A stretch of DNA of 63,492 nt, the filler included, from Elsinoe ampelina (Eukaryota): assembly GCA_010093995.1 (NCBI GenBank). It is 3 parts of 3 records of this genome, joined end to end, with 100 filler letters (N's around TTAATTAATTAA, not from the genome) between each part and the next. Parts side by side here need not be neighbours in the genome. Positions count along the whole stretch, not along the records: positions 1 to 26,056 come from ML992559.1; positions 26,157 to 51,237 come from ML992560.1; positions 51,338 to 63,492 come from ML992570.1. The stretch is one strand, 5' to 3'. Within the stretch, counting starts at the first letter, position 1. Each line of letters begins with the position of its first letter. A model generated the notes under the pieces. The model did not search any database. It saw nothing but the letters and a program-made list of their open reading frames with translations, and was not told the origin of the DNA. Shown in pieces: positions 3,940-63,492 of this stretch. The translations under genes and the position numbers were made by a program.

Positions 3940-4794
3940 AAAACCGAACAACCTCCAGAGGCGGTACGATACCGCTATTGACATTCGGCTGGCGAAGAGA
4001 GTGCTACGCACGTCTGCCTGTCGCTGTGCTAGCCATGTTCCCAACGACAGTCTTGCGACTACATCACGGGCCGTCGACACGGTCAGTACGAGTGTTGGCA
4101 ACGCGTTTCGTCACACAAATACAATGCTACGCATACTTGTTCAGACGAACGGAGGCGGTCTGTTACACATACCGGCTAAACGCCTTGCAAGGTCAAGCTA
4201 TGGAGGGTGGTTGCGGTCATCGCATGACGCGAGAAAACCAGGCCGAGAGAGTAAGACCGAATTCAACTGGAGCTTGGATCGATCATGGCAGGCCATACAC
4301 CATCTCGGATGTCGTTAATTCGAGCAAGGTCTATCATTTAAGAGTCAGGCAGGAATAAAGACGGCTCATCGGCGAGCTCATTCAGCGGCTCGTCTAGGAG
4401 TACGCGCTGTCTATCATCTGCTCCGATCAACTACCAAATTGACAACTTTGGTCGCACGAACAATCCGCAACAACCATAGATGATAGTCCCTAAGAGTGGG
4501 CCTTATATAGGTGTCTCGAACTCAGGATTACTTGTAGCTCCGATCTATTTCGAGTGTTCGCGGTGAGTACGTCAGCACACCAGTTAGGTCCAGTGCTCCA
4601 GGATATTGAACCCTCGCACACGGATCACAGATTCTGTAGAGTGTGTGTTGAAATACCACAGCTCGTACACCGCCACATGGCAAGGAGTTACACCATCAAA
4701 CCAAACGGCATCATCACATTGCCGGACAAACCAACACCAAGAAGACACTCCACATGGCAGAAACAATCTATACATTTATCCTCCTCTATCCCAT

Positions 4795-5364
4795 CTACTT
4801 TTGCAAATCCCCCGTCTGCCCCTGCTCAGCCCCATTCGTATCCTCCTCCAATTTCTTCCCATTGACAACCGCCGCCTCAGCCCCAATAACAACATACAAC
4901 ATCCGACACCACTCCTTATCACTCGCGTTCCTCCACGCATGGTTCGTCCCCCTCTGCACACTCGTATCCCCCCTCTTCATCAACCTCGTCTCCCCACTAT
5001 CCAACACAAGCTCACACGCCCCCTCCAACACAACCCCATAATCCAAACTACTCGTCCTATGCATCGGACTCACATGCCCCGGCGCCATAGTCACGACCCG
5101 CATGACGGTACCAGTGGGGACCGCGATGCCGGGACCGGTCTTGAGATGGCCCCCGTAGGCGGACAGGTCGGCGTCGTCGGCGAAGGAGACGGGGAAGGAG
5201 GACGTGGTGAAGCCGAGGCCGAAGTCGACTTCGCCCCCTTTGATCACGGTGATGGGCATTTCTTCGCCGTAGCGGGCGTCGATGATGGCTTTGCCTGAGG
5301 CGTCGTGGGTGGTGATGAAGCGTTTGGGGGCCGGGAAGGGGTTGGTGTATTTTTGGGAGGACAT
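4795..5364 (-). CDS. Cupin-2 domain protein
   Basis: RFITTHDASGKAI and SPMHRTSSLDYGVVLEG..LVLDSGE..GDTSVQRGTNHAWRN are cupin motifs; intronless, 189 aa. Confidence 0.92.
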   Translation of the reverse strand: MSSQKYTNPFPAPKRFITTHDASGKAIIDARYGEEMPITVIKGGEVDFGLGFTTSSFPVSFADDADLSAYGGHLKTGPGIAVPTGTVMRVVTMAPGHVSPMHRTSSLDYGVVLEGACELVLDSGETRLMKRGDTSVQRGTNHAWRNASDKEWCRMLYVVIGAEAAVVNGKKLEEDTNGAEQGQTGDLQK

Positions 5365-6253
5365 GGTGGGTTGTGGGAGGGGGGAGTGTGGATGCTGGGT
5401 TGTTGGGTTTGGATGGAGAGGATGAAGGTGATGGTGGTAATGGGTTTGGCTGGTATGGTATGGGGGATTCTGGGTGAGAGAGGGAGATTGGGATTAGTAC
5501 AGGGGTTTGGCTTAAAGGTTGTGTATATACTGCAGCTGCACATGCTCAAAGCTCCCCCGCGGTGGTCCCCCACACTTTTTGCTTCCGATGTGGAGGGAGG
5601 GGGGAAACGGTTTTGCCCACACCCGCGTCGGGCCATTGGGGGCCGATTGCATGTGGGCGCATTGGGAGGTTGCGACTTCATCATACCCAACACTGTCTTC
5701 ATGGGTGTCTTGTACACTGAAGAAGTGGTCGTTTCTCTATTGATACGTATAGGATTGATCTACATTTGATGAGAGGCGCGACGAGGAGTCCGTGAAGGCT
5801 GGATTGACCTCGGTACTGTCATCGTCGGTTCGTCCTACAATTCTGCCCGACTTTTCGACTTGAGGCCAGCGTGCCATCCTGCAAGGCTATTTGAACCTAT
5901 CCTCAAGGCATCATTTTCTCACGTTGTCGCAGGCGTGTCTGGTATGCTTCCAAATCCTATCAACAGGCGCTTTGACCGCTGCGAAAGCTCTCGCCGGAGA
6001 AATCAGGCTAAGCGACGTCAAATTTTCGATATCTTCCGCCTTGGACCTGCGGCGCAGCATAATTGACTTTGCAGACACCGCTCTTTGACTCTATCTTCTG
6101 GCTTGATTCGCTGATGGCTGATTAGTGACCATCTGGTATTCCAGACAATGCCACATTCCTAAAGAAAAAACTCGAACACACAATACTCTCAAGGCCGAGC
6201 CGCGCTAGCCCTCAACTCTGTCATTCCCCATCCAGTCCATGCCGAAGCTGAGA

Positions 6254-6571
6254 TCAAAGAAGGACAGCTCCTCCGATCAATGTGACTATGGCCAGCGTCT
6301 GGTACCATCGGACTCGACTATGCGCGGCTCCTCCAATGAAGCATTGCGGAACAGCGAATCCAGATTGATTGAACCGCTGAATCAAGTCGGTCTGATTAGG
6401 GCGCGAGCAGAAAGCGTACCCGCGGGCATCGCAGGTTGAATTCCTCGAGAGTTGACCACCAGATCCTGAGCAGTACTCGATGGAGACGTCGGCGAGCGAA
6501 AAATTCCCGGAAGAAGTACTATTGAATTGTACGATGCAGCCTGGACCGGTATGACATGGGGCGAGAGACAT
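6254..6571 (-). CDS. Small Cys-rich, N-glycosylation-rich protein with C-terminal hydrophobic tail (GPI- or tail-anchored candidate)
   Basis: From ATG 6571: six Cys, five N-x-S/T sequons, small residues GGAAHS followed by WYQTLAIVTLIGGAVLL-stop. Confidence 0.5.
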   Translation of the reverse strand: MSLAPCHTGPGCIVQFNSTSSGNFSLADVSIEYCSGSGGQLSRNSTCDARGYAFCSRPNQTDLIQRFNQSGFAVPQCFIGGAAHSRVRWYQTLAIVTLIGGAVLL

Positions 6572-7729
6572 GTTTGATGGTTGAGACAAGGTAGGCCTGG
6601 GTGGTGACCTGCGAAGAGAGACGAGGAATTGAAGTCCTTGAGCACACCGAGAGGCTTCAATTTAATGTCCCATTGATAAGCGCTGAACTGTGCCGTCGCT
6701 TAAATACAAGGTATACGCCACCATACGCTAGTACGGCACTTGAGCATGAGCCGTATAGGGCCCGAGCGGAGCCAACCAGCACACAAGGTTCGCAAGTACT
6801 CCATGTCAGGGCCGATATAACGCTTCACTAGCCACGACGCAGGCTACCAATGTAAAGCAAACAAACAAAGTTCAATCAGAACTTTTGATACCTACGCCAC
6901 GCCACCTACCAACCAACGATTCAGCTCTGCATTTGTGGCGCAGCACCGCCTACGATACTCTCTCCAACCTAAATCTTCATACCGCTAAGCTTGCTGATCG
7001 TGTCCGACGTCTCAAGTAAGTACTCCAACCGAACCAACTCCCCTCTCCTATTCCTCATACCAATCCTCTACCGTCAACCATCCTTAACTTCCACGCCGGG
7101 ACCCTTCACCCTCCGACCACTCCTCACCCACCTCCCCACCATCTCTCGACCACCTCATCACCATCACCCCATCCCCTCCAATCTCTCCTCTACAACCGCC
7201 CAACCGACTCCCGTCCCATCCTCAGCCTCTTGGCCCTCTCTCCCACGGCTGTCCTCCCAGAAGGCGAGGTATGAGAAGCTGAAGTGTTTAAAGAATGGTA
7301 GTAAGGGGGGAAGTGGGGGTGGTGCAGTGAGGAGTGCTGGGTCGAGGACTGGGGAGGGGGGGAAGAAGGGGTTGGTGGAGGGTTGTTGGGGCGGGGTGCT
7401 GGTTGGGGTTTGATCAGGGGGAAAATGGGGACTGGTTGCGTGAGGGATGGGAAGTGTGACGTGAGGAGGCTCGTTGGGAAGACCTTGATGCCACATGAAG
7501 TTGTGGCAGGTGGATAGGGGAGCAACAAAATCGTTCATTCCACTGGTCTTCGAGGAGCACAATGAGGTTGGAAGGCCGTGGCTAGGACAGACGACAGAAC
7601 ATGGGGGATCACGGCAGCGAGCACTCGGATGTACAGTGGTGGTGATGTCGACTGACATACCTGAGCTCGTACTAGGCCTACCACAGCTCTGCATCGATCC
7701 CTCCGCCTCTTTCTCTTCCCTTGTAATAT

Positions 7730-9412
7730 CTATGATAGGATCCTAAAGATGGGGTACTCATCCCCCCTTTCCAACGGAATAATATTAAACGCCACAAAAC
7801 TATCAATATTCTCCGGCTCCAACGCGATGAACGCCAATCCCGCATTCTTCTGCCTCGTACTCACCAAAAAACTCCCACTGGGCAGACTCACATCCCGCTC
7901 AAACGAACTCGTCGTGACCCCATTCAAGACCGTCCCCTCGTAGATCACGTCTTCAAGCACACTGCTCGTGATATTCAACGCCTCCACCGTGCCTCTATAC
8001 TCGTAGTCCAATTCCTGTACCTCGAGCCCGAAGTTGCGCAGTTTCGCTACCACGTCGATCCACGTGCGGGGGATGAGGTAGGCTTCCGGCCTCGCACGCG
8101 TGAGGTTCGCCACCGAAGGGGTCGTCTCGAAGAAATCCACCGGGACCTGCTCGATGTTGCCTGTCTGGCGGTTGACCAAGGTGAAGGTGCGGTTGGTGCG
8201 GGTGTAGTAGTCCGTCACGACAATGTCGGCGTCGGAGGAGATGAAGTCGGCTCGCGCGGACTCGATGGTGGAGAGGACGGTGTCGAAGTTGGCGCGGGCG
8301 TATTCGAGTGCGGCTTCGATCTTGATCAGACCGGTGGCGACGCGGCGTTGGAAGTGTTGGTCCGCGAGGCGGATGCCGCGGAGTTCGAAGAGGAAGGAGA
8401 CGGTTTGGGTCAGGCCGTAGGCGTTGCGGCCTGTGCGGGCTTCGGTGACGGCTTCTTCGAGGACGATGCGGGAGCCGGGGGTGGAGTTGCTGGTGCCGGT
8501 CACATAGGGCTCCCAGCGCAGACCGTTGGCGACGAGGTTGGAGCCGATGAAGGGGATGAAGCCGTCGAGGAGAAGATCGCGGATGTCGGGATGGATGTTG
8601 GGGTTGATACCACCTGAGATGAGAGCATCAGCCCCTGGTTGGTAGTTGCCGCCGTAAATGGTGGGCGCAGTGAATTCGTGCATGTCGATGGAGATGTGCG
8701 GGTTATAGTCCATGAAGACCTGCTTGATGTCTCGAGATTGCTGTCGAGCGAGCTTGATGTGCTCGCGGTTACCATCGAGGTTGCATGCTAGAGCACGCTG
8801 GAAATATGAGACTCCATCTGGATTGTATCGAGGCAGTATTTTGATATCCAGACGCTCAAGCAAGGCGGCTGTGAACGTCTGGTTGCGGTCGAGCTTGCCC
8901 AGGAGAGCAGCAACAGATTGATCTGCAGCCGGCTCGTTGCCATGGATGGCTGCCTGAATGTAGACCTTGAGCTTGGTGGCATTCCGAGCTGTTGAGTCTG
9001 CGTCGGATAGGAACAAATATGGAATTGAGCGTCCTTCTTCTGATCGGAAGTCGGCGGCCTGATATGTCAACCAATCATTGCGATCGGCCAGAGTTCGATA
9101 GAAGTAGTCTGAGGGAGTCAGTAACTTTAATGACGCCAGATGATTCAAGGTCGTCTTACCAAGCTCCGTGTCGCTTGTTGGACCTTCCGTACCATTCCGC
9201 CAGCCTGCTGGGAGGGTATCCGGATTGGTAAAGGCGGGAGATAGAAGTTCGATGTCCTCAAGCTCGGGGAAAGCTCTGGACACGATCTCGCTGTCTCGAG
9301 AGACTGAGAGGTAGTTCTCGCCATATGTAGCCTGCCCACGTACGAAAGGAAGACTCAAAAGCAAAGCCTGCACAAGGCTCGAGGGAGAAGAGAGGCGCAT
9401 TTTGAGTAGCAT
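7730..9412 (-). CDS. Secreted zinc carboxypeptidase, peptidase family M14
   Basis: Signal-peptide-like N-terminus; IHGNEP, NPDG, NREH and DMHE zinc/substrate motifs. An in-frame 51-nt intron at 9109-9159 (GTAAG..CTGAC..CAG) is read through by the ORF track. Confidence 0.9.
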   Translation of the reverse strand: MLLKMRLSSPSSLVQALLLSLPFVRGQATYGENYLSVSRDSEIVSRAFPELEDIELLSPAFTNPDTLPAGWRNGTEGPTSDTELGKTTLNHLASLKLLTPSDYFYRTLADRNDWLTYQAADFRSEEGRSIPYLFLSDADSTARNATKLKVYIQAAIHGNEPAADQSVAALLGKLDRNQTFTAALLERLDIKILPRYNPDGVSYFQRALACNLDGNREHIKLARQQSRDIKQVFMDYNPHISIDMHEFTAPTIYGGNYQPGADALISGGINPNIHPDIRDLLLDGFIPFIGSNLVANGLRWEPYVTGTSNSTPGSRIVLEEAVTEARTGRNAYGLTQTVSFLFELRGIRLADQHFQRRVATGLIKIEAALEYARANFDTVLSTIESARADFISSDADIVVTDYYTRTNRTFTLVNRQTGNIEQVPVDFFETTPSVANLTRARPEAYLIPRTWIDVVAKLRNFGLEVQELDYEYRGTVEALNITSSVLEDVIYEGTVLNGVTTSSFERDVSLPSGSFLVSTRQKNAGLAFIALEPENIDSFVAFNIIPLERGDEYPIFRILS

Positions 9413-10029
9413 GTAGATGCCGGTTTCACTTGAAGAAGACTCTACTTGCCAAAAAAACTTACCCCGAGACCTTTTTGAACATCTCCAGCTGTACCGGATC
9501 TGGCGTCATGGTCGAGCTAAACCATCATGCTATCTTGACAGGTCCTGCATGATAGCAAGATCGACAGGTAGAGTGGTCTTGGTATTGGAGCTCGAATGCG
9601 GACTTTACTGAGTGCAGCATAGCAAAGCGGGGTCCTTTCCATGGTCGCCACGAGGGATAGAGATGAGGATAGCTCGTTGAGGAAGGTGAAGTGCTTGTCG
9701 GGAACCAAGACGCGGTGCCAGAGATGGGCAGGAAGCTTGGCCGTGAGTTGGGAAGAGAGGAAATGGGCGGTGGTGTCATGGGCCAAGAGGTTGATCCGCT
9801 GCGTCCCCCGCTTTGAAGGCTTGAAGGAGAGATGGTCGGAGAACGAGAGTGATAACGTGATGGAGGGGATGCATGAAGCCATCCTCGATATGAGCCAGAT
9901 CCTCCATACAAATGGCTCACCAGCACCAAACTCAATTCGTCTGCCGCGTTCACCCGAGAAACCCGAGCTGCACCCTGACGTCCCATCTCCATCCCAAAAT
10001 AATCTCCAGCTTCACTGTCATGGCCAACC

Positions 10030-10953
10030 ATGCCCCTCCATCGAGCCCGGCCAGCTCTACGCACTCTCGCCACCCCCCGCGGACACCTCACTCGTCCCTT
10101 CCCCCGCCACTACAGCACCACCTCTGAGCCCCTCACCCTCCACCACGACCTCTACCCGCCCCCGACCACCACCTCCTCCCCCCCCGGCAACCCCATCATC
10201 TTCCTCCACGGCCTCTTCGGCTTCTCCAAAAACAACCGCACCATCTCCAAGATCCTCGCCCGCGACCTCTCCCGCCCCGTCTACGCCCTCGACCTCCGCA
10301 ACCATGGCCTCTCCCCCCACTCGCCAACGCACACCTACACCACCATGGCCACGGACGTCGAAGCCTTCCTGCACACCCACTCCCTCGCCTCCCCGACCCT
10401 GATCGGCCACTCCATGGGCGCAAAAGTCGCCATGGCACTCGCTCTCCGCGGCAAGTGTCCCGTCGCGAACCTCATCAGCGTCGACAACGCCCCCGTGGAC
10501 GCCGCGCTCAAGAGCGATTTCGGGACGTACTGCGCGGGGATGCGCGCCGTCGCGGCAGCGGGGGTGAAGACGCTCGGCGAAGCGGATGCTGTGATGGCGG
10601 AGTACGAGCCGGAGGTGGCCGTGAGGCAGTTTTTGCTTATGAATTTGGTGAGGGATAAGGAGACGGGGAGGCAGAGGTGGAGGGTGCCCGTGGATATTTT
10701 GGGGAGGAGTTTGGGGCATATGGCGGATTTTCCGTTCAAGGACGCTGGTCAGGAGGGGGAGAGGTGGGAGGGTCCGGCGTTGTTTGTCAGGGGGACGAGG
10801 AGTAGGTATGTGGCTGATGAGACGTTGCCGGTGATTGGGAATTTTTTCCCGAGGTTTGAGGTGAGGGATATTGAGGCGGGGCATTGGGTTGTTAGTGAGC
10901 AGCCGGAGGAGTTTAGAAGGGTGGTGGTGGAGTGGTTGCAGGATAAGAAGTAG
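10030..10953 (+). CDS. Alpha/beta hydrolase, ABHD11/YbfF-like, probably mitochondrial
   Basis: Arg-rich presequence; LHGLFG, DLRNHG, GHSMG nucleophile elbow, AGHWV. Confidence 0.92.
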   Translation: MPLHRARPALRTLATPRGHLTRPFPRHYSTTSEPLTLHHDLYPPPTTTSSPPGNPIIFLHGLFGFSKNNRTISKILARDLSRPVYALDLRNHGLSPHSPTHTYTTMATDVEAFLHTHSLASPTLIGHSMGAKVAMALALRGKCPVANLISVDNAPVDAALKSDFGTYCAGMRAVAAAGVKTLGEADAVMAEYEPEVAVRQFLLMNLVRDKETGRQRWRVPVDILGRSLGHMADFPFKDAGQEGERWEGPALFVRGTRSRYVADETLPVIGNFFPRFEVRDIEAGHWVVSEQPEEFRRVVVEWLQDKK

Positions 10954-11151
10954 GGGAGGCGGTAATGGTATACACGGATAACAAACATGGTGGAACGAGG
11001 TTTTTGGTGCTACTACTAGTAATCCCTAGCTAGCTAGCCGCAATGCTTTCATGCATATCCTTGAAAAAACGCCGCCGAGCACGGGGCCTTCTCTCTTCAA
11101 AACCCGTGATCCGTTTGGTCTAACATCCGTTACTGCATCGCTCGTCCTTCT

Positions 11152-12034
11152 CTACACGCTCTCCAAGACTGTCTCCTTGAACTCACGCTCCACCTTCTGA
11201 CCGTCGTCGTTGGTGGTGGACTCGCCGTGAAGCTGGAGGAGGGCGCCGAGGTCGAACTTGGGGGACTTGAGGAGCTTGACCTTGCGGACATGGACCTATG
11301 AAACATCAGTATGAAGTCATTGTGTGGTCGAGCAGTGACAACGCACGTTCTGGAGGGGGTAGATGCCCTGAGTGCTCTTCTCAATCTCACGTCCAATCAC
11401 CTCTGGGATGAGCTTGGTGGTGAGCTGAGAAAGAGTGCACGAGCTGGCCTCCCTCTGCATGATATCCGTCATCTTCTTCCTGATGGCGCGGATCTGCGAT
11501 GAACGAGCGTATGTGGTCTTGCGGATCTGGTTGGGCCTCCTCTTGGTGAAGGCAATGCAGAACATGCGGAGGAGGTAGTCGTCGGTGGTCTTGACAACCA
11601 CGTTGGCCTCGATCAATGACTGCCACTTGCGGACAAGCGATCGCAACTTGTCGGATGTGAAGTCGAGACCGTGGAAGTTGGTCAAGCAGTTCCTGCCCTG
11701 GACCTCGTCGACTCGTAGGCGCACCTTGCGGAAAGCGTGGTCCTCATCCTTCTGGAGATCGGCCAGGGAGACTTCGAGGATACGGCCCTTGAGGGCGTCA
11801 TTGGCGTTCTTGAGACCAGTTGTGCGATTTACGAGGGTCTTGCCGACACTGAAAATGAATGTTAATACCCATTTATGCCTTGCTATTCAATTTTTTTCGG
11901 AGGTGGACGCACTCTCGGATGGCGAAGGTCGACGGAGCCTTGATCTGGTACCAATCTTTGCGCTGGAATGGGTCGGTTCGCTTCTTGAGACCTTTCTTGC
12001 CCTTTGACAATCTCTTGTTCTTTCCTACCGCCAT
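11152..12034 (-). CDS. RPS1: 40S ribosomal protein S1 (eS1/S3a)
   Basis: [15 protein letters not shown] start at 12034; introns 11849-11912 and 11296-11346; [22 protein letters not shown]; ends [12 protein letters not shown]. Confidence 0.97.
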
Positions 12035-22568: not shown

Positions 22569-22675
22569 ATCATGGTTGGCATTTGAGGGGTATCGAATGT
22601 GCTATGCTATCTTTGTCATGCCTGGTTGGTGTCATACAGTGGATTTGATGTGGCGGAAGCAAGGTATAGCTCTGC

Positions 22676-26056: not shown

Positions 26057-26156
26057 NNNNNNNNNNNNNNNNNNNNNNNNNNNNNNNNNNNNNNNNNNNN
26101 TTAATTAATTAANNNNNNNNNNNNNNNNNNNNNNNNNNNNNNNNNNNNNNNNNNNN
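26057..26156. other. Artificial assembly spacer N44-TTAATTAATTAA-N44
   Basis: Ns flank a 12-mer that carries stop codons in all six frames; identical to the spacer at 51238-51337. Confidence 0.97.
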
Positions 26157-51237: not shown

Positions 51238-51337
51238 NNNNNNNNNNNNNNNNNNNNNNNNNNNNNNNNNNNNNNNNNNNNTTAATTAATTAANNNNNNN
51301 NNNNNNNNNNNNNNNNNNNNNNNNNNNNNNNNNNNNN
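51238..51337. other. Artificial assembly spacer N44-TTAATTAATTAA-N44
   Basis: Same linker as 26057-26156. Confidence 0.97.
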
Positions 51338-51376
51338 GAGCGCTATAAAGAGCGCTATAAAGAGCGCTATAAAGAG
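51338..51376. repeat. 12-bp tandem repeat GAGCGCTATAAA x3+ at contig edge
   Basis: Units at 51338, 51350, 51362. Confidence 0.9.
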
Positions 51377-54009: not shown

Positions 54010-57000
54010 ATGTTCCAAGTACCATCAACACCGGACTCACGACGGAATGATAACGATTTCCCTTCTACCACTCCTGCTGGACCTCCCCCGACTAGCTTCA
54101 CCCATCAGTCCTTCACTCCTGCAGGACAGCCACCTTCTTCGGTACTTGGAAGCTCATACGGAGCCGGCAAGGAATTCAATGGCAAATCAACCTTCTCTTT
54201 CTCACAATATCTGAAGAGTCCGTCCAACGATGCACCGGCTGTACCAAACCGCGTCCCTTCAAACGGATTCAATGTGCCCAGCAGTAGCCCACCGCGGCGG
54301 TCGGACAATGACTTCACCAGTGAAGCTGCGCAAATCCTTGCTGGCTTTGGAGGTGGTCTGAAGGACAACATCAACTTCGGCGCGAGCAACGCTGATGACA
54401 TGCTGGACTTTGGCGCGTCACCTAGGGGAGCTAAGAGATCAAGGAACGGCGATGTAATGGCACAATCAATGCGCTCGTCGCGAATGCTGGCCAGAGGGTT
54501 TGATAGAGATCCAACGACGCCAAAGGTTGCGAACGGACTTGCTGCTGGTCTTCCTCAACCCAGCTCGATAGAAGAGAAGGATGAAGTCGTGTTACAAACA
54601 GAGGAGATACTGGAAACGCTTGACTTGGCCGTCAAGTCGAAATCCAACGAGGAGCTAGAATCGATTCTGCAGCAGTCGGTGATACGGTTACAACAGGAAT
54701 GGTCGAAGCACAAGTCTCACGAGTCGATAAGTTCAAGCATCGGACCAGTAGACGCATCAAATTTTTCACGCGCCGCGTACATTGCGACACTGCTGTTCCA
54801 GCTCCATGCACCCACTTCCCTGAACTCATCGACAAATTCAGCGGGGTCAAAAGCGTTCACATCCCTCGTTCGCGCGCCGAGCACTGTTCCATACCCTTCA
54901 GCCTTACTATTATGGTTGAACAAGAACCACAATCCCTTTCCGGAGGACCTGTCAGAGGTTCAGAATGCTCGACCCACACCATGTGCACATGAACGGTTCT
55001 GGGATACCATCTTCCAAACGCTGCTTCGCGGACACATATCGACTGTCATCAAGATGCTGTCAACAACCAATTGGGGTCATGCGGACTGCGCACTTGAAGA
55101 TGGCTATGAGGAGCCTGGCTACACAGGATCGCAGCTGGAGGCTGTCCAGCACGTTGTGTCAGACTGTGTCGGGCTCTTAAACACCTGCCCGGCCCTGACT
55201 GATGATGACTGGGAGGTCACTGGCACGAGCTGGGTGCTCTTCCGGACCCGCGCTCGTCGTGCGCTCGAAGATCTGGAAGACTATGCAGAGTCGGAGAATG
55301 CGGACAGGGACTATGGGGGGACCAATGTCTTCTCAGCTTCAAAATCATTCGCAGCTGGAAGCAGGAGGGCAGAGTCTCGCGTACCGTGGACCGTCTACGA
55401 GCAGCTCAAGGCCATCTATGGTCAACTGCTTGGCTACAAGGAGGAAATTCTACTTTCAGCGCAAGACTGGTTGGAAGCTGTCATTTACCTCGCTGTATGG
55501 TGGGATGGGGAAGACGAGCAGAACTTGGGTGCTAGCCGCCGTGGTGGCGGTCGAGGACAACGGGAACGACTTGTTGATGTTGAGCCCGGTCTTGCCTACC
55601 GACGGAGGCTGTTAGGTGCATTTGCCGCAGTAACAGATTCTCCTGAAGATGCAGTTCTCGGCGTTAACACCGTCGATCCTCTGCAAGTCGCCATAGGAGC
55701 CGTGTTCGAGGGCGAAATCGAGAGCGTTCTGAAGATTGTCATGAGATTGAGTCCTCTGGTCGCGGCTTCGATCGTCGATGTTGCAAGTGTTGGCGGATGG
55801 CTACCAGACTCAAGACCTCGGACTGGCGATGTCATGGATGGGTTCGATGCGGAAGATCTGATGGTGCTCTCACACGGCAATCTGGCCAAACCTACATCCA
55901 CTCTTGATCGCGACAGCATTCTTACCACATTCTCATCACTTCTAGCCAGTAAGCAGACTTTACATTCACCGGCACAAGACATCGAGGGCTGGGTTTTGTC
56001 TGTACGTGTGCTTTCTCGCTTGGACAGCGCCACAAAAGCACAAGACGAGATATCACGATTGTTCTCCACACTCCCTCTCGACTCGGCCACACAAGTTGAT
56101 AAAGCTCTATCCGTCTGCGCTTCTCTTGGGCTGGATGCACAAGTTCGCGCCATATCTGCTCGGTATGCCGCAAAGCTTAGCCAAGGAGGTCAGAGCTACG
56201 GCGAGGCGCTGCTGTACTACGCCCGAGCCCACGATGAGAAGGAGCTACAGGCTACCCTGGACGTGCTGCTCGCCACTTCATTGGTCGGCTCGTCGGCTTG
56301 GCCCGCTCGTGGTGAAATGGACCCCAAGCTTGAAGAGCTTGTGGGAGACCAGGTTCGGGCTGTCGGAAGGCTAGCAGGCGTGGACCGCGAGGCAGGTAGA
56401 TTGCTAGCGTCGGGATTAAGCGGCTATGCCAGTCTGCGGCGCTTCTATGATCTGAGAGATGAGGACGTTGAGGACGACGGAGATGAAAATATGGGAGATG
56501 CCGAAGACGCCAGTGTACTCGTTGCAAAGAAGAAGAGCGGCCTCAAGCCTAAAGAACGGAAGAAGGAAATGGTCAGATCCATCGTCGCGCTCGTCGACAG
56601 CGCCGCCATGAGTATCAGAGGCGGTCTCTACGATGCCGAAGCTCGAGGTGTTGTACAAGTCGACGCACTCATCGCGCTTCTGGGGGAAGCACTGGGCCTT
56701 CTCCACCGTAAGCGGCATCCCAACGTCACACAAACACAATTACTAACCCTCGCAGAACCCCAAACCACCTTCTCCAAACGCCAACTCATGACCCTCCTCC
56801 GCGCCATCGAAGACCTCCAAACCGTCTCATCCCGCATCTACGACCAAGCCGACTCCCTCTTCAAAGCCTGCATGGGCGCCTACTCTGGCGCGCTCGCCAC
56901 AAGCCAACAGGATCTCGCCAAGTCGATTTCGCTGCAGAAGAGCACGTCGAATTTGTCGACCAGCACGTATGGGATGGTGAATAGTCGGGGCAGTATTGAG

Positions 57001-57177
57001 TCAGAGAAGACGGGGACGAGGGAGACGATCGGTGAGGATAAGGTCAAAAGGGCGTGGGATTGGAGGAGGGGCGTGGCCATGAGTGTGGGCGCCAAGTATA
57101 CGGGCCAGGATGTACTGAGGATACTGAGAGTGGGGATTGCGAAGGAGGTGGGTAGGGAATGGGTTGAGGGGAGGTGA
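54010..57177 (+). CDS. NUP85: Nucleoporin Nup85-like protein
   Basis: FWDTIFQTLLRG, WVLFRTRA, DWLEAVIYLAVWWDG, YGEALLYYARA and RAWDWRRG are typical of fungal Nup85. In-frame 48-nt intron at 56708-56755. Confidence 0.8.
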   Translation: MFQVPSTPDSRRNDNDFPSTTPAGPPPTSFTHQSFTPAGQPPSSVLGSSYGAGKEFNGKSTFSFSQYLKSPSNDAPAVPNRVPSNGFNVPSSSPPRRSDNDFTSEAAQILAGFGGGLKDNINFGASNADDMLDFGASPRGAKRSRNGDVMAQSMRSSRMLARGFDRDPTTPKVANGLAAGLPQPSSIEEKDEVVLQTEEILETLDLAVKSKSNEELESILQQSVIRLQQEWSKHKSHESISSSIGPVDASNFSRAAYIATLLFQLHAPTSLNSSTNSAGSKAFTSLVRAPSTVPYPSALLLWLNKNHNPFPEDLSEVQNARPTPCAHERFWDTIFQTLLRGHISTVIKMLSTTNWGHADCALEDGYEEPGYTGSQLEAVQHVVSDCVGLLNTCPALTDDDWEVTGTSWVLFRTRARRALEDLEDYAESENADRDYGGTNVFSASKSFAAGSRRAESRVPWTVYEQLKAIYGQLLGYKEEILLSAQDWLEAVIYLAVWWDGEDEQNLGASRRGGGRGQRERLVDVEPGLAYRRRLLGAFAAVTDSPEDAVLGVNTVDPLQVAIGAVFEGEIESVLKIVMRLSPLVAASIVDVASVGGWLPDSRPRTGDVMDGFDAEDLMVLSHGNLAKPTSTLDRDSILTTFSSLLASKQTLHSPAQDIEGWVLSVRVLSRLDSATKAQDEISRLFSTLPLDSATQVDKALSVCASLGLDAQVRAISARYAAKLSQGGQSYGEALLYYARAHDEKELQATLDVLLATSLVGSSAWPARGEMDPKLEELVGDQVRAVGRLAGVDREAGRLLASGLSGYASLRRFYDLRDEDVEDDGDENMGDAEDASVLVAKKKSGLKPKERKKEMVRSIVALVDSAAMSIRGGLYDAEARGVVQVDALIALLGEALGLLHRKRHPNVTQTQLLTLAEPQTTFSKRQLMTLLRAIEDLQTVSSRIYDQADSLFKACMGAYSGALATSQQDLAKSISLQKSTSNLSTSTYGMVNSRGSIESEKTGTRETIGEDKVKRAWDWRRGVAMSVGAKYTGQDVLRILRVGIAKEVGREWVEGR

Positions 57178-57496
57178 TATAATAGCTTGGGAAGCTTGAT
57201 CAAATAGTGAATTTGGTCGGATGACAACGGCGCAGACGTCTGGTAGCACAGATGAGAGGCCGATTGAGTATTCATGCCAATATCTGCTGTGACATACCTG
57301 CAGGTGACAAATGACATGTCACTGAGATGGAAGAGACTGGAAAGAATGAGCACAATGAGAGTCTAAAGCACTGATGTGTGGCGAACGGTCACCAAGACTG
57401 AAGCCGTTCGAGGTTAGCAAGCCTACTACTCACAATACAGTCACTATCATAATGACCACGCACCAAAGTCAACGAATCCCATACATTGGCAAGCTA

Positions 57497-58165
57497 CTAC
57501 GGAATCGTCGCCACCCCGGCATGCTTGGTCCTTATATGCCGGTTCAGATTGTCCTTCCTCGGACACAGTGACCCGCCTCCCTGGGCAAACCTGCATCCAG
57601 CGACCGGACAGTAGTACAATGTCGTCGATGTTGTCGTGCGGGGATGCACAGATCGGATGTGGCGACGAAGGTCTGCTTTGAGCGACGCTGCGAAGGTGCA
57701 GTCGTCGTTGTTGCATTTGAAAGGGCGGGTGTGGGTGTTGATGTGCTTGCTTGAAATGGTCAGGGTGAGCTCGGAGTGTCTGGATAAGGAAACATACTTG
57801 AGGAGGTACCGTTTTGGGAACGTCTGAGGGCATTTATCGCAGTGGAAGGCTGGTAGGGTAGTGGCTGTTGCGTGGGGCGAGAGCTCGTTGTTGTTGGCCG
57901 GTGGATTTGTTTGGTCAGGTAAGGAGCGTTGTGGCTGCTGTTGAGCACTTGTTTGTGTTGCATATGGTGCGTGACACGGCTGTTGGGCGTCGTTGGTATC
58001 CTCTGGTCCAGCAGAAGAGTTGCTTGATTCTTGTACACTCCAATCGTAAGGCGGCAAGGGCCCGTCAGGTCCGGACAACCAGTTCGGATTAACTGTCAGA
58101 AAAGACTTGAAAGGTGATGGTGATGATGATCTAAGATCTGCTTTACGTCCGGTTGATGCCGACAA
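57497..58165 (-). CDS. C2H2 zinc-finger protein, three fingers (start uncertain)
   Basis: CDKC..KH..H (intron 57750-57797), RPFKCNNDDC..LRRHIRSVH, YCPVAGC..RKDNLNRHIRTKH. Confidence 0.8.
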   Translation of the reverse strand: MSASTGRKADLRSSSPSPFKSFLTVNPNWLSGPDGPLPPYDWSVQESSNSSAGPEDTNDAQQPCHAPYATQTSAQQQPQRSLPDQTNPPANNNELSPHATATTLPAFHCDKCPQTFPKRYLLKYVSLSRHSELTLTISSKHINTHTRPFKCNNDDCTFAASLKADLRRHIRSVHPRTTTSTTLYYCPVAGCRFAQGGGSLCPRKDNLNRHIRTKHAGVATIP

Positions 58166-60320: not shown

Positions 60321-60857
60321 GACTGTGGGGATGCTTTCTCCGGAGCCGGCGTGTTTGCAGGCGGTGTCATGAGTCTGGAGCAACAGGTGATGGTCATGCT
60401 GCGTTGTCAGTGGATTCATTACTCGTATATATGGCCAGTATCCATTGTAAGTCCCCTCTCGTAGATTTGCTAGGACCATCGCTACAAAGAGACACAAGAC
60501 GTGAGCCCTGCCCACGTCACACCGAGCTGAGCTACCAAGGGTACTCTACCCCGCTGTACCACAACTCAGGCAACAAGATATCCACCACCATTGCTCGCTC
60601 TTGCCTTTCTCTGTCAAACACATCCCTCAATTGCACATCATTCCCGTCACTTCCTCAAAAGATTCACAGACAGCACCGTTTGTCACTGCTCGGAGCAGGA
60701 ACCAACCCCGCACACCCACATTCCAACGTCTAACCTGCAGCAAACCCCTGGCCCATCTGCATTCCTGCCAGGCACCGGTCAGACACGCGAGCACTTCGTG
60801 CCTGCAGTGACTGCCACGCTTCTTCCTTCATTCTCATAGCGGAGACACATACCACCT
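60321..60857 (+). pseudogene. Decayed C5 cytosine DNA methyltransferase, RID/Masc1-like
   Basis: Collinear remnants across frames: motif I GDAFSGAG (60327-60350), motif IV region VDLL..KT(W)SPAH (60461-60515), motif VIII LNC..LPQ..RLSLLGAG (60626-60700), RLTCS..H..TRE/SCLQ (60727-60807), motif X-like I-G-D-T-x-P-P (60836-60857). Confidence 0.55.
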
Positions 60858-62031
60858 GAGTATCACGTCCAAGACAGAACAAGCCACACCGCAACACCGA
60901 ATTATCTGAGAGATCTTGTACCTCAGAGCCAATCTGCGACTTTGCCATTTAGGCAACCATAGGCGACACGAGCTCGACAGTCAGATCGAACAACGTCAAA
61001 CAACGACCGCGACAGGCACCGAGGGAATATCATGGAGCCAATAGTACTCTCAGCGATGATCTCGCTATTTGTGGTCAAAGGCTTCGCACTCGGCGCAGTA
61101 TTGGCCTTCATGTGGTCGCCTTACACCTGAGGTCGAGATGGTGACAGCGGAGGAGACGAAGAAGGCCACGAAAAGGGCGGACGGGAGTTGAGCAAATCAC
61201 GAAAAGAGACATATACAAAGACCCACGGGCAGAGCAGGTGGAGGGATTGAAGACAACTATCGGATTCCACGACGGCACACCACGAGATGACCGTGTAAAG
61301 TACTTGGACCCGGACCCTGCAGCAAGACTGACACCAGCGTGCTTGGAGCAGTCACAAGGAGGCATGACACTTGCGACCAGCATGGCAAAAGCACCACGAA
61401 CGAGCATGACTGGAAGCATGAATCCGTCCAGGCGGTCCCGTTTGAAGCTCTGTACGAAAAGCCGGCAGAATTGACGGGATGTATTGAAGGATCCCAGCAG
61501 GATCCTCAATGGCCGACAAAAGCCAAAGGAGTCTTTCCAGGCACCCGGAAGGAGAGACGAATTGACGAAAACATGCAGTGTACGACTTGTACGACTGACG
61601 ACCAATGACACCAACGGCCGAAGCGCCCAAATTAATACATGTAATTTCATCAATCAACATCTTTCTCTCTGTCCACTGATTGCACAGACTGTCTTGTTAC
61701 AGGCGGCAGGGCGCAAGTCTCAGCGGACAGCTTCCATGGTCCAGCCGTGATATACATTGCATCTACTTCAGGACATGATGGCTATGTTACAATAGACAAG
61801 ATCTTTCCCAGTGACGTTGAAGTCAAACAGGGTCGTCCTTTGTGCGATCTACTGTACAGAATCACCTCAAAACCTCAACGCCTGTCCCGCGCCAGCAAAA
61901 TCACCCAGCAAAAAGAGGGTATACCATTCCCGAACAAGTCAATGAACGTATGTCTATAGTCACATCCCTTACTTTCACCTCTTCCAATTCCCTTCTTCCC
62001 TCTCTTCTCCCGCATCTGGTCCACCCTTGGC

Positions 62032-63492
62032 TTACGCATTCTTCCTAGCAATATACCCTCTCCACCTTGGGTTGTAGTAATACACCGGAATGCCCAAAGC
62101 AAAGATGAAGCAATAGAAAGCCAACAGCGTCATGTACGCCCGCAGGTAGTTCCACTGCACAACCATAGGGATGATGCCGTAGGAAGCGCCGAAGCTGACA
62201 ATGTTCTTGACGCCGATGACGATGGTGAGTGCCGGACCTGGGTTCTTGGGGTAGGCTTCGGCGGCGAATTGGGTCGTGTTGATGAGGATGACGGTGTTGG
62301 CTATTTGGTAGAACGTCCAGCCTGAGAGATATTAGCCACGCCGCATTGACAGGAGAAGAGACTTACCCATAACAATTCCCCACCAGCTGTATGTCGCTGG
62401 CGAATTGGCCGTGACACCATAGATGATGATCCCAATCAAGCCGACGAAGAAGACCGGAATGAGCTGCACCAGCGTATTCTCAGGCAGATGCACCCCTCCC
62501 CTCCTCCTCGCCAACCACAAGTTCAACTTGTCCCCAAACCACCCAGTGTAGACCGTGGCAATGATACTCCCCGGGAACACACCAATATTGATCAACCCCA
62601 CCGAAGCATAACTCCAGTTATACAACTCGGTCAAGACCACCGAATACGTCAACCCCATCGCAATCCCCGTCCCCAACCCAATCGCCGCCAGCAAAATCGC
62701 AAAAACAATCGCCGGGCTCGAGAAACACTCCAACATCTTCTTATTCGCATCCACAAAAACCCTCAACGGCTGGGGACTCGGCTTCGACCAAGGCTTGAGC
62801 TCACTCACATAGCTCTTCTTCTCAGGCACATTCTGACTCTCCGCACTCCCGTAAACCACCCCAAACGTCCTCCTCGCCTCCTCCTGACTCATGATCTTCG
62901 TCACCCCCCACTCGTCCGTATGCACCACTTGCTCCCCGACCTGCACCGGCACACGGATATACTTGGTCTCCGTGAGCGCGAAGAAACCAATCCCCAACCC
63001 AGCGGACGTCAGGATGCCGAGCAGCCAGTAGAACCATCGCCACCCCAGCGCTTCCACGAGGTAGGAATTCCCGATCAGGAACCCCGTGTTGACCAGCGCC
63101 TGACTCCCCCAGTAAACCCCGTAGAACAACCCTCGTTCGTCCAGGAACGCGATATCCGTCACGATGAGGGGGAGGACGCTCTCCGTCGCGCCCGCGGCCA
63201 GGCCTTGGAGGATGCGACACGCGAGGTGCGTGTTGAAGTCCGGGGCGGCGGCGGCGCCGAACGTGGATCCCATGAGGAACAGGCAGCAGGCGAGGAAGGT
63301 GGGGCGGCGGCCGTAGATGATGGCTGCCGGGAGGATGATGAAGGCCCCGCCTGCCATGGCGAGGGATGGGTAGTTGGAGAGTTCGCCGACTTGGGCGTAG
63401 CCTTTGCCTTCGGAGGCGTAGACCATGAGGAAGGTGGTGAGGATGGGGCCGAGGCCGCCGACGAGGACGAGGGAGAAGATGGCTGGGGGGGG
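62032..63492 (-). CDS. MFS transporter (5' end outside the window)
   Basis: AIIYGRRPTFL, CRILQGLAAGATES, DIAFLDERG, LGWRWFYW; intron ~62322-62366; last exon ends YYYNPRWRGYIARKNA-TAA. Confidence 0.9.

Follow-up and report, generated by a model that had tools for sequence, protein, structure and literature searches.

In 64 fungi, many filamentous ascomycetes among them, GC skew is known from a 2011 study to change sign along genes, with an excess of C on the coding strand near the 5' end and an excess of G near the 3' end, both at fourfold-degenerate sites and into the UTRs (PMC3315797). In closely packed human genes, terminal G skew has been tied to R-loops and termination (PMC3787257), and around human meiotic breaks, C>N and A>N changes are found on the forward strand left of the break (PMC7615360). 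In a 63,492-nucleotide stretch of Elsinoe ampelina DNA (the window), the flips from C/A-rich to G/T-rich sequence have the polarity of the published fungal pattern and likewise involve silent sites and UTRs. Against a full match, A/T composition along genes is nearly flat in PMC3315797, whereas a strong flip at twofold sites was found in the window. The flips are very probably a gene-anchored member of the fungal gene-composition pattern.

Compositional switches in the window

The sharp flips from C/A-rich to G/T-rich plus strand were confirmed as real. Ten of the 11 switch points listed in a first-pass annotation were recovered with an offset of at most about 80 nt: 5123-5142 (listed as 5120), 7259 (7260), 8070-8097 (8100), 10494-10543 (10520), 22214-22300 (22290), 34014-34053 (34050), 34823-34850 (34900), 40088-40091 (40100), 56906-56966 (56920), and 63157-63168 (63180). 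The remaining one, called weak at 44880, is present but lies at 45062-45194, about 200-300 nt off. Switches occur about once per 5 kb, with arms of 0.13-0.73 kb, and GC content peaks at them (0.60-0.68).

A scan requiring an absolute GC skew of at least 0.3 over 300 nt on both sides, gave nine C-to-G and two G-to-C switches, and both G-to-C calls (7676 and 9869) are junctions of adjacent units. A three-state HMM assigned 10,505 nt (16.5% of the window) to 34 skewed segments, with 10 direct C-to-G adjacencies and one G-to-C adjacency (binomial P = 0.012). When the window was shuffled within 2-kb blocks (n = 15), the HMM found a mean of 304 nt skewed and a maximum of 1001 nt. Shuffling of 100-nt blocks (n = 200) gave a mean of 1.15 C-to-G switches (maximum, 4) and that of 300-nt blocks a mean of 2.72 (maximum, 9), indicating that at the larger block size the asymmetry, rather than the count, is unusual. 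One of the nine C-to-G calls of the scan, at 52278, lies in an AT-rich block in which G+C is scarce.

Relation of the switches to gene ends

A change from C/A to G/T is its own reverse complement, so its plus-strand appearance is identical for genes of either orientation, and the arm that borders the stop codon is what discriminates. HMM segments within 160 nt of a stop codon and assigned to an identified gene were taken as stop-abutting. On the coding strand, 9 of 10 such segments were G/T-rich; after segment 22301-22669, initially attributed to WAPL, had been reassigned by hand to the HTD2-like gene, whose open reading frame (ORF) contains it, the count was 10 of 11 (binomial P = 0.012). After this reassignment, all five plus-gene ends were G-rich and five of the six minus-gene ends C-rich on the plus strand. 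Stop-abutting segments made up 10 of the 12 G/T segments versus 1 of the 14 C/A segments (Fisher P = 1.7e-4). In 8 of 10 units the G/T arm ended between -156 and +107 nt from the stop codon (rough binomial P = 1e-8). Nine of the 10 HMM units switch within recognized coding sequence, their outer edges track stop codons, and the reverse transitions fall between genes. Polarity in this window therefore follows gene strand, contrary to the initial view that the switches are independent of gene orientation and that transcription direction cannot explain them.

Table 1. Positions of compositional units and skewed segments in the window
Feature	Position	Strand	Basis	Arms (mRNA sense unless stated)	Stop codon
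Cupin gene unit	4691-5523	-	Pfam Cupin_2; HMM segments	C/A 5523 to 5114 (5'UTR side and first ~250 nt of CDS; ATG 5364); G/T 5113 to 4691 (remaining CDS and ~107 nt)	4798
Strongest flip, DNA without recognizable protein gene	6891-7522	.	Scan; HMM
M14 carboxypeptidase 3' unit	7757-8606	-	Pfam Peptidase_M14; HMM; K3	C/A 8606 to 8180; G/T 8029 to 7757 (24 nt short of stop)	7733
Segment upstream of M14	9652-9878	-	HMM	Plus strand G-rich (C-rich on M14 strand)
Alpha/beta-hydrolase (ABHD) unit	9879-10968	+	Pfam Abhydrolase_1, residues 63-299; HMM	C/A 9879-10511; G/T 10512-10968	10950
Lone segment, polyketide synthase (PKS)-like gene	19272-19814	-	HMM	Plus strand C-rich (G/T-rich in mRNA sense)
HTD2-like gene unit	21568-22669	+	HMM; K3; ORF translation motifs	C/A 21568-22300, from intron 21527-21655; G/T 22301-22669	22565
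OSH1 (oxysterol-binding protein) 3'-terminal unit, last exon	33605-34375	+	Pfam Oxysterol_BP; HMM; K3	C/A from ~33605; switch 34029-34053; G/T to 34375	34297
Maf-like gene unit, convergent with OSH1	34659-35133	-	Pfam Maf; scan; HMM	C/A 35133 to 34910; switch near 34830; G/T 34784 to 34659
F-box gene terminal G/T arm	37969-38221	+	HMM; K3	Weaker C/A dip before G/T arm	38202
First MFS transporter unit	39080-40452	-	Pfam MFS_1; HMM	C/A 40452 to 40089; step-like switch 40088-40091; G/T-rich to stop, peaks 40088 to 39842 and 39266 to 39080	39106
Weak unit, PHD-finger gene end	44499-45401	+	HMM; tentative gene model	C/A 44499-44768; plus strand G-rich 45255-45401, beyond stop	44936 (long ORF)
Nup85 3'-terminal unit	56697-57194	+	Pfam Nucleopor_Nup85; HMM; K3	C/A 56697-56966; G/T 56967-57194	57174
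Segment in C2H2 zinc-finger gene	57627-57996	-	HMM	C/A-rich, ends 127 nt before stop
Second MFS transporter unit	62491-63492	-	Pfam MFS_1; HMM	C/A from window end to 63163; midpoint 63168; G/T 63162 to 62491	62335

K3, the G/T fraction at third codon positions, was compared between the last 80 codons and codons -200 to -80. Of 20 genes, 8 showed a rise toward the stop codon at P < 0.01 and 1 a fall; K3 did not rise over the last 80 codons in Sec1, RPS1, TBCC, WAPL, the Sac1-like gene, the exonuclease gene, or the PHD gene. The pattern is present in only about half of the genes in the window. The unit spans the whole gene in the short cupin, hydrolase, HTD2-like, and Maf genes and is confined to the last ~1 kb in the long OSH1, Nup85, M14, and F-box genes. 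K3 was 0.91 versus 0.21 in OSH1 (P = 6e-23), with neutral upstream exons, and 0.77 versus 0.22 in Nup85 (0.48 upstream; P = 4e-14), where the remainder of the 1,074-codon ORF is neutral. Corresponding values were 0.76 versus 0.35 in M14 (P = 1e-8), 0.91 versus 0.34 in the HTD2-like gene, and 0.63 versus 0.34 in the F-box gene (0.53 upstream; P = 1e-4). K3 changed from 0.14 to 0.94 in the hydrolase and from 0.07 to 0.94 in the cupin gene, where the midpoint was 5123 and the 10-90% width about 82 nt; the fitted width was below 10 nt in the first MFS gene and Nup85.

The units are contained in transcripts, although the RNA contigs are unstranded and give neither the strand nor the end of any RNA. 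The hydrolase unit lies within an unspliced contig (9568-11000), and contigs 4864-5472 and 4924-5454 correspond to the cupin gene. An RNA joint placed an M14 intron at 9109-9159, and the HTD2-like intron has a GT..AG plus-strand splice joint in two RNA runs. The translation of the latter gene, previously labeled HTD2, had no Pfam match; motifs in it resembling those of HTD2 make this a putative HTD2-like gene.

The strongest flip in the window, with 200-nt skews of -0.74 and +0.81 at 7258-7259, is covered by RNA contigs (5932-7150 and 7408-9300), and none of its five ORF pieces had a Pfam match. Strain differences are dense there: among the 40 letter differences listed, 38 fall in 7006-7741. 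The segment upstream of M14 and the C arm of the hydrolase form the sole direct G-to-C junction of the HMM (9878), at a divergent promoter. ORFs downstream of the PHD-finger gene gave no Pfam matches. The PKS-like segment lies mid-gene, 1.4 kb from the stop codon, and breaks the 3'-end rule, and the zinc-finger segment is the sole C/A segment counted as stop-abutting.

Composition of silent sites and noncoding flanks

The flip was strongest at silent codon positions, where the third-position G/T fraction went from 0.07-0.18 to 0.76-0.95 at the switch. Fourfold sites and NNR and NNY codons all flipped between arms, in agreement with the earlier proposal that synonymous sites carry the skew. In the C/A arms (1,079 codons, eight genes), fourfold sites had C493, G91, A63, and T27 and NNY codons C187/T17; in the G/T arms (891 codons), fourfold sites had G272, C51, T40, and A12, NNR codons G128/A15, and NNY codons T101/C44. 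Control coding sequence (4,023 codons) had C539, G531, A498, and T460, and fourfold G+C was 86-87% inside units versus 53% in controls. Synonymous first positions shifted as well: Arg CGN/AGR was 62/3 in C/A arms versus 14/64 in G/T arms, and Leu CTN/TTR was 107/4 versus 29/50. Codon positions 1 and 2 followed, their GC skew changing from -0.52 to +0.49 in the hydrolase and reaching +0.93 at the OSH1 end.

The skew persisted at fourfold sites and in UTR-like flanks. Noncoding DNA took part, as had been noted before, on the 5'UTR side of the cupin gene (C 0.50/G 0.03), downstream of the OSH1 stop codon (G 0.49/C 0.04), and, at the edge of an arm, in one intron (C 0.38/G 0.13). NNR codons in C/A arms favored A-ending Gln, Lys, and Glu (A65/G30) versus G52/A3 in RPS1, which is highly expressed, with by far the deepest RNA contigs, yet has no flip; codon preference is thereby excluded as the cause. 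Because silent sites and UTRs are involved and translational codon preference fails, a strand-asymmetric mutational or repair cause is the likeliest class of explanation.

OSH1 in other fungi

The OSH1 flip is conserved across fungi. Among 77 distinct fungal metagenome loci containing the last OSH1 exon, a phylogenetically nonindependent sample of one gene family, 70 showed elevated K3 over the last 80 codons (37 at P < 0.01) and none a significant decrease, and the rise correlated with GC3 (Spearman 0.68). With fourfold sites alone, mean GC skew rose from -0.31 upstream to +0.15 over the last 80 codons, and the increase was seen in 66 of the 77 loci. The switch lay 233-296 nt upstream of the stop codon in the eight strongest loci and 256 nt upstream of it in the window. 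From the stop codon outward, mean K3 in 62 loci was 0.63 (0-240 nt), 0.41, 0.43, 0.49, and then about 0.5, compared with 0.91, 0.21, 0.28, and 0.49 in the window.

In the orthologous loci, G-to-C switches gathered at +26 to +242 from the OSH1 stop codon, which is the 3'-3' junction, and C-to-G switches at +376 to +650, matching the Maf-like unit. C-to-G and G-to-C switches were near parity over all 78 metagenome loci (23 versus 20), a sample centered on one convergent junction.

Possible causes of the switches

An upward skew jump is the polarity seen at replication origins, and the sharp, recurrent switches had been read as foci of a gene-independent bidirectional process such as fixed origins or break sites. 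This is very improbable and is largely refuted by the gene anchoring, the short arms, and the orthologous position. Nearly all HMM units switch inside coding sequence with edges following stop codons; the arms are bounded by transcript ends rather than replicon-sized, recur every few kilobases, and fall within conserved coding exons. GC content is high at the switch points, no hexamer was common to at least 5 of 10 switch windows, and the OSH1 switch occupies the orthologous codon region in distant fungi. For break repair at the switch itself, human meiotic break flanks have the opposite polarity (PMC7615360). Long inverted repeats or hairpins with C-rich and G-rich arms, or one-strand RIP, can be given almost no credence. 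The arms are indeed complementary in composition, and RIP is active in the genome, as its AT-rich blocks show (TpA/ApT, 1.8-2.4; (CpA+TpG)/(ApC+GpT), 0.27-0.31). The longest inverted match in 4500-11200, however, was 29 nt at 76%, folding energy equaled that of arm-wise shuffles, Pfam domains continue across switches, and the arms are GC-rich with RIP indices like those of normal DNA (TpA/ApT, 0.33-0.67, and 1.1-1.35 for the second ratio); hairpins and RIP were rejected on these grounds.

A polar footprint of meiotic recombination, with breaks in nucleosome-free regions flanking genes, is unlikely as well. Lesions in the single strands exposed by resection, mismatch correction specific to G.T, or both would leave the plus strand G/T-rich to the left of a break and C/A-rich to the right, making 5' gene parts C/A-rich and 3' parts G/T-rich, and GC-biased gene conversion would lift GC at the same places. 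Hot spots would then sit at the G-to-C junctions, and C-to-G switches would be where two influences meet. The intergenic junctions fit (9878, within 34375-34659, and those beyond the OSH1 stop codon in orthologous loci), as do the GC enrichment of the units and the correlation of flip size with GC3. Resection and conversion tracts are of about the same order as the 0.13- to 0.7-kb arms, and in a single case, the Sac1-like gene, a 3' end adjoining an AT-rich RIP block lacks a unit. The polarity itself is predicted by the human break data of PMC7615360. Against this, the C/A arms of long genes start mid-gene (OSH1, ~33600; Nup85, ~56700), where there is no intergenic region, nor a G/T arm on the left; the step-like switches of the first MFS gene and Nup85 contrast with the smooth crossover expected of two gradients unless both are saturating; and the G.T repair step is presumed. 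Selection on the transcript or on transcription is quite improbable. G-rich terminal arms would aid pausing and R-loop-assisted termination at tightly packed convergent genes, and C/A-rich arms upstream would either leave the RNA without structure, A and C being unable to base pair, or slow early elongation; for the latter arms, the CTP limitation hypothesis of McLean and Tirosh, discussed in PMC3315797, offers an adaptive route. The flip is kept in most orthologous OSH1 loci, G/T arms terminate in the 3' flank, close to the stop codon, and a convergent neighbor lies within a few hundred nucleotides at hydrolase/RPS1, HTD2-like/WAPL, OSH1/Maf, and Nup85/zinc finger; in humans, genes whose ends show G skew are closely arranged and carry 3' R-loops (PMC3787257). 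The pattern is nevertheless often absent from convergent partners (RPS1, WAPL, and TBCC with the PKS-like gene), the hydrolase RNA has no extra stability (-433 versus -425 ± 9 kcal/mol for arm-wise shuffles; z = -0.97), and codon positions 1 and 2 are dragged along, which looks like mutation pressure against protein constraint.

On balance, we consider it probable that the switches belong to gene- and transcript-bound compositional units of the published pattern with a transcription-coupled cause. Each switch is very probably the midpoint of a unit whose coding strand is C/A-rich over the upstream 0.2-0.7 kb and G/T-rich over the final 0.13-0.7 kb, ending at or just past the stop codon. The transcription-coupled cause itself is proposed tentatively: strand-asymmetric mutation or repair may follow one regime in the early or middle part of a ~1-kb transcription unit and another in its terminal part. 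Close to termination, an exposed nontemplate strand would favor C-to-T and A-to-G changes on the coding strand, and R-loops are possibly involved at the G-rich 3' arms. The effect would show up where GC pressure on silent sites is strong. Expression level argues against such a cause, being no predictor of the flip, as RPS1 illustrates. A simple contrast of initiation and termination is opposed by the long genes, in which the C/A arm adjoins the G/T arm and not the 5' end; hypothetical antisense units are therefore invoked, and the upstream mirror bias could stem from antisense transcription out of the 3' nucleosome-free region. Exceptions are the internal G/T segments of the PKS-like gene and the first MFS gene (39842-40088) and the C/A segment near the zinc-finger stop codon.

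The suggestion of an undescribed chromosomal element or process did not hold, as the pattern had already been reported, as an average, in 2011 (PMC3315797). The window is a strong local view of that average pattern, at the level of single genes and near saturation. What is newer here are the near-saturated, step-like flips, the involvement of A/T, and, in long genes, a two-part module within the final ~1 kb.

Detection of the switches

The window has a GC content of about 52% and contains about 22 recognisable eukaryotic genes (Pfam), and its features are those of a scaffold from a filamentous ascomycete. Its introns are short, roughly 50 to 130 nt as judged from RNA contig joints. These contigs, from runs X1, X2, X6 and X7, carry GT..AG or CT..AC joints and so look like spliced RNA, from which neither strand nor transcript starts, ends or levels can be read.

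The first-pass annotation listed 11 points at which the plus strand flips from C/A-rich to G/T-rich. These switches are real, since 10 of the 11 coordinates were refound within about 80 nt, and the one listed as weak lay 200 to 300 nt off. A scan that required skews of opposite sign, each at least 0.3, in the two 300-nt flanks of a point detected nine C-to-G switches and two G-to-C switches. One of the nine was in an AT-rich block, and both G-to-C switches were junctions of adjacent units (a unit being a C/A arm followed by a G/T arm on the coding strand). A three-state HMM called 34 skewed segments covering 10,505 nt, or 16.5% of the window, compared with a mean of 304 nt in a control shuffled inside 2-kb blocks. 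Segments adjoined directly in the order C to G 10 times and G to C once (p = 0.012). In block-shuffled controls for the scan, the mean number of C-to-G switches was 1.15 for 100-nt blocks and 2.72 for 300-nt blocks. The sole direct G-to-C junction, at 9878, is the divergent promoter of the M14 and hydrolase genes, each with a C-rich 5' end, as is typical in fungi. A single polarity was seen in the first pass because the skew switches from C to G within genes and returns to C in intergenic spacers.

Coordinates of individual features in the window
Feature	Position	Strand	Remarks
Unit with the strongest flip	6891-7522		Transcribed DNA, no recognisable protein gene
Hydrolase unit	9879-10968	plus	Inside unspliced RNA contig 9568-11000
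PKS-like gene	17845-20980	minus	Introns 18610-18658 and 20924-20979; RNA contig 18659-20923
AT-rich block	25700-28300		GC 0.28; TpA/ApT 1.83; (CpA+TpG)/(ApC+GpT) 0.27
N stretch	26057-26156		44 N + TTAATTAATTAA + 44 N
MFS1 unit	39080-40452	minus
AT-rich block	51000-52800		GC 0.34; TpA/ApT 2.37; (CpA+TpG)/(ApC+GpT) 0.31
N stretch	51238-51337		44 N + TTAATTAATTAA + 44 N
MFS2 unit	62491-63492	minus

Both AT-rich blocks have RIP-type dinucleotide indices, and they have in common one 220-nt stretch with 83% identity in inverted orientation. RIP was ruled out as the source of the arms, which have a GC content of 0.52 to 0.65, a TpA/ApT ratio of 0.33 to 0.67 and an index of 1.1 to 1.35; the last two values are 1.8 to 2.4 and 0.27 to 0.31 in the AT-rich blocks. 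The two N stretches have the same make-up, which we take to be that of a 100-nt scaffold linker with stop codons in all six frames. If they are linkers rather than masking, the window looks like three contigs joined inside AT-rich blocks.

Position of the arms relative to genes

Carrier genes on either strand read C/A and then G/T because this order reverse-complements to itself, and the effect of gene strand was assessed by which arm type reaches the gene 3' end. The switches had been described as independent of gene orientation, which proved incorrect: the arm type at stop codons tracks the gene strand. An HMM segment was scored as stop-abutting when it lay no more than 160 nt from the stop codon of its assigned gene, and 10 of 11 such segments were G/T-rich on the coding strand (p = 0.012). 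This count assigns the segment 22301-22669 by hand to the HTD2-like gene (plus strand, RNA-supported), whose ORF holds it; automatic assignment with a 200-nt margin placed the segment in WAPL, and the count was then 9 of 10. A stop codon was abutted by 10 of the 12 G/T segments versus 1 of the 14 C/A segments (Fisher p = 1.7e-4). All five plus-gene ends were rich in plus-strand G (hydrolase, HTD2-like, OSH1, F-box and Nup85), and five of the six minus-gene ends in plus-strand C (cupin, M14, Maf and the two MFS genes), the zinc-finger gene being the exception. In 8 of 10 units the G/T arm ended between -156 and +107 nt relative to the stop codon.

Short genes were filled entirely by the unit, and long genes carried it only in the last ~1 kb. 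This geometry was followed with K3, a purely synonymous measure defined as the fraction of degenerate codons that end in G or T. For OSH1, K3 stood at 0.91 over the final 240 nt, fell to 0.21 and 0.28 across the 760 nt before them and lay between 0.44 and 0.49 farther upstream. The terminal, preceding and upstream values were 0.77, 0.22 and 0.48 for Nup85 and 0.63, 0.34 and 0.53 for the F-box gene. Over the last 80 codons, K3 was raised in 8 of 20 genes (p < 0.01) and lowered in 1. About half of the genes had no unit in the K3 comparison, among them Sec1, RPS1, TBCC, WAPL, the Sac1-like gene, the exonuclease gene and PHD. A start of the C/A arm at the last intron was rejected as a general rule; it fits HTD2-like, holds to within about 50 to 150 nt for MFS1 and OSH1, and fails for M14 (about 450 nt) and for Nup85, which has no intron.

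For the unit with the strongest flip, the HTD2-like ORF and the ORFs after the PHD gene, Pfam returned no family. Among the differences listed between the window and the X2 and X6 RNA contigs, 38 of 40 letter differences and 8 of 8 indels lie in the stretch 7006-7741, which overlaps the strongest unit; another ten differences are outside this listing, and covered stretches elsewhere have zero or one difference. Two low-complexity G- or C-rich stretches in skewed arms, 5356-5388 and 7102-7137, drew pieces of unrelated RNA contigs (X1, X2), visible as loose ends on both sides, indicating that skewed arms yield spurious short matches. The arms also yield long spurious ORFs on both strands. One X2 contig leaves the hydrolase gene and enters RPS1, its convergent neighbour, over the RPS1 intron joint (11000-11300), and the transcript 3' ends therefore overlap or abut.

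The PKS-like gene has AT, ER, KR and ACP domains, and no KS domain was detected with Pfam. The gene is spliced and transcribed. The ORFs of its unspliced stretch are broken by an in-frame stop (20077-20079) and by a change of frame close to 19700, and the gene may be decaying or truncated.

Silent sites and flanking DNA

The first-pass annotation placed the signal at synonymous positions, in agreement with the codon-bin and fourfold tallies, in which silent sites carry the strongest flip. Binned by 50 codons, third positions changed from C 0.7 to 0.92, with almost no T or G, to G 0.62 to 0.78 plus T 0.12 to 0.32, with almost no A or C. Pooled over eight genes, fourfold sites were 73% C in the upstream arms (C493/G91) and 73% G in the terminal arms (G272/C51), compared with 25 to 27% of each base in control coding sequence (C/G, 539/531). 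Twofold codons obeyed the same amino/keto rule (NNY, C187/T17 changing to C44/T101; NNR, A65/G30 changing to A15/G128), and Ser, Arg and Leu did so in their synonymous choice of first base. Compared with this twofold-site A/T flip, all-site AT skew was weaker and inconsistent. Logistic fits gave a rise in K3 from 0.07-0.18 to 0.76-0.95 in six of eight genes, the fitted ends for HTD2-like and MFS2 being at their bounds, and the 10-90% widths of the switch ranged from less than 10 nt (MFS1, Nup85) up to about 480 nt. First and second codon positions were dragged the same way, in the hydrolase from -0.52 to +0.49.

The skew was also shared by non-coding DNA, as had been noticed, in flanks beyond the ORFs and in one intron at an arm edge. 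In these UTR-like flanks, the tallies were C 0.50/G 0.03 on the cupin 5' side, G 0.49/C 0.04 in the 75 nt past the OSH1 stop codon and G 0.33/C 0.13 in the 101 nt past that of HTD2-like. The statement that codon preference does not explain the flip was borne out by the highly expressed RPS1, which favours C- and G-ending codons (NNR G52/A3) and has no flip. The C/A arms favour A-ending NNR codons, contrary to RPS1, and translational codon optimisation was ruled out.

OSH1 orthologues in other fungi

A metagenome scan with the OSH1 last exon gave 80 loci with 60 to 71% amino-acid identity, 77 of them distinct. Raw third-position GC skew is confounded in this gene because the C-terminus is Glu/Lys/Arg-rich, and fourfold sites and K3 were used instead. 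Fourfold skew averaged -0.31 in the upstream part and +0.15 over the final 80 codons, with an increase in 66 of 77 loci. K3 was higher in the last 80 codons in 70 of 77 loci, 37 of them at p < 0.01, and no fall was significant; these loci represent one gene family and are phylogenetically non-independent. Six loci match the extremeness of the window (for example, K3 of 0.14 rising to 0.96 in L076). The size of the flip correlated with GC3 (Spearman 0.68). In the eight strongest loci the switch lay 233 to 296 nt ahead of the stop codon, compared with 256 nt in the window. Averaged over 62 loci by distance from the stop codon, K3 was 0.63, 0.41, 0.43, 0.49 and then about 0.5, which mirrors the window geometry.

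C-to-G switches concentrated within OSH1 and within its convergent neighbour, and G-to-C switches at the 3'-3' junction. A plain switch count over 78 metagenome loci had no C-to-G excess (23 versus 20), which is no general test because the loci sample a single convergent junction. Two loci, L073 and L080, had a whole last exon that was G/T-rich at silent sites, unlike the other 75, with upstream fourfold skew of +0.33 and +0.57 and K3 of 0.64 to 0.88.

Discussion

The units are very probably anchored to genes or transcripts and members of a published fungal pattern. McLean and Tirosh (2011) surveyed 64 fungi, with filamentous ascomycetes well represented, and in most of them, including Neurospora, Magnaporthe, Chaetomium, Fusarium and Aspergillus, the coding strand was C-biased at the 5' end and G-biased at the 3' end (PMC3315797). 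In their data the bias shows at fourfold sites, extends to promoters and 3' UTRs and shifts amino-acid use, and its correlation with expression is very weak. The units in the window are likewise C-biased upstream and G-biased 3', at fourfold sites and into UTR-like flanks, and the pattern recurs across fungi (70 of 77 OSH1-orthologue loci, from one family and non-independent). The first-pass suggestion of an undescribed element or process therefore fails, as the average pattern is already in that paper. The window differs in that single genes are near-saturated and sometimes flip in less than 100 nt, whereas the published data are genome averages with gradual ramps, and in that A/T choices flip at twofold sites, whereas A and T were nearly flat. 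In long genes of the window, moreover, a C/A dip immediately precedes the G/T arm and the sequence ahead of the dip is neutral, and the scaling of the effect with GC3 also departs from the published account. A literature search, largely without subscription-journal papers, returned nothing for filamentous fungi on abrupt flips within single genes or on a two-part module at the 3' end, and no later nuclear-gene work settling the cause of the fungal 5'/3' skew.

Related asymmetries have been described at gene ends. The excerpted text of Fujimori et al. (2005) reports an excess of C over G near the transcription start sites of plant and fungal genes (PMC555766), and the cupin and hydrolase arms and the M14/hydrolase divergent promoter have a similarly C-rich coding strand at the 5' end. 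As excerpted, that work concerns the start site only, and the terminal G/T arm and the sharp intragenic switch are outside its scope. Terminal GC skew and R-loops at the 3' ends of closely packed human genes are reported in the excerpts of Ginno et al. (2013) (PMC3787257), and gene 3' ends in the window resemble these in their G-rich non-template strand; the mechanism put forward there, R-loops and termination, may extend to the G/T arms. The 5' ends of human genes are G-skewed whereas fungal ones are C-skewed, and a C/A dip is not described in those excerpts.

Replication origins show an upward jump of G-over-C and T-over-A skew, and the skew spans whole replicons. The window switches have this upward jump, and fixed origins were among the causes proposed in the first pass. 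Unlike origin skew, the arms are gene-bounded, measure 126 to 733 nt and end near stop codons, with the switches in GC-rich coding DNA, and on these grounds the fixed-origin reading was rejected. No hexamer was common to at least 5 of the 10 switch windows (±60 nt), giving no common origin element. An inverted repeat or hairpin was ruled out, the longest match being 29 nt at 76% and folding equal to that of arm-wise shuffles.

McLean and Tirosh proposed phase-specific transcription-coupled mutation or an adaptive response to CTP limitation, and the cause has been left open since their description (PMC3315797). For the units in the window, transcription-coupled mutation or repair may well be the cause, a reading that we hold tentatively. 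The interpretation in the first pass stands in part: the skew is probably mutational and not codon preference, while independence from genes and novelty do not hold. Under the favoured explanation, GC pressure on silent sites would heighten a transcription-coupled strand asymmetry. The terminal zone could reflect R-loop-type exposure of the coding strand, by analogy with the human terminal GC skew in the excerpts of PMC3787257, and the C/A dip may trace back to antisense units from the 3' gaps.

A serious rival is recombination, with initiating breaks in the gaps flanking genes. The excerpts of Hinch et al. (2023) describe a forward strand that loses C and A left of human meiotic breaks, which leaves G/T on the left and C/A on the right (PMC7615360). 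The window resembles such break flanks in its kilobase-scale mirror-image asymmetry on two sides of a point. Its C-to-G switches, with C/A left and G/T right, have the reverse of the polarity in those excerpts, and a break-site focus at the switch points, as first suggested, is not supported; the intergenic G-to-C junctions would fit that polarity. The GC enrichment of the units also suits biased gene conversion, but the C/A arm starts mid-gene in long genes, which argues against recombination from the gaps. A third possibility is selection, either for termination or for RNA that stays unstructured. Transcription-coupled asymmetry is still the explanation that we favour.

A broader claim, which we regard as rather unlikely, is that composition alone marks discrete ~1-kb strand-polarised modules, C/A and then G/T, in filamentous ascomycetes (whole short genes, or the last ~1 kb of long ones), with the OSH1 module kept in place across distant fungi. 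If true, such modules would be traces left by a process associated with the nucleosome-free regions of gene ends, and the known fungal 5'/3' skew would be their blurred average. One candidate process would be pervasive antisense transcription units mirroring the sense unit, and another would be polar mutation and GC-biased conversion from recombination begun at these regions.

In practice, the skew drags amino-acid composition, gives rise to long spurious ORFs in either strand and imitates the skew jump of an origin, and such flips should be expected by fungal genome annotators and by skew-based origin predictors. The window adds a strong new case to a known but unexplained pattern, and some of its features sharpen the open question. 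Silent sites flip near-completely within tens to a few hundred nucleotides, and in the same place in many fungi. With loci of this kind, the competing causes can be tested gene by gene instead of on weak genome-wide averages; the candidates are transcription-coupled mutation, R-loops, antisense units, biased repair linked to recombination, and selection favouring termination.
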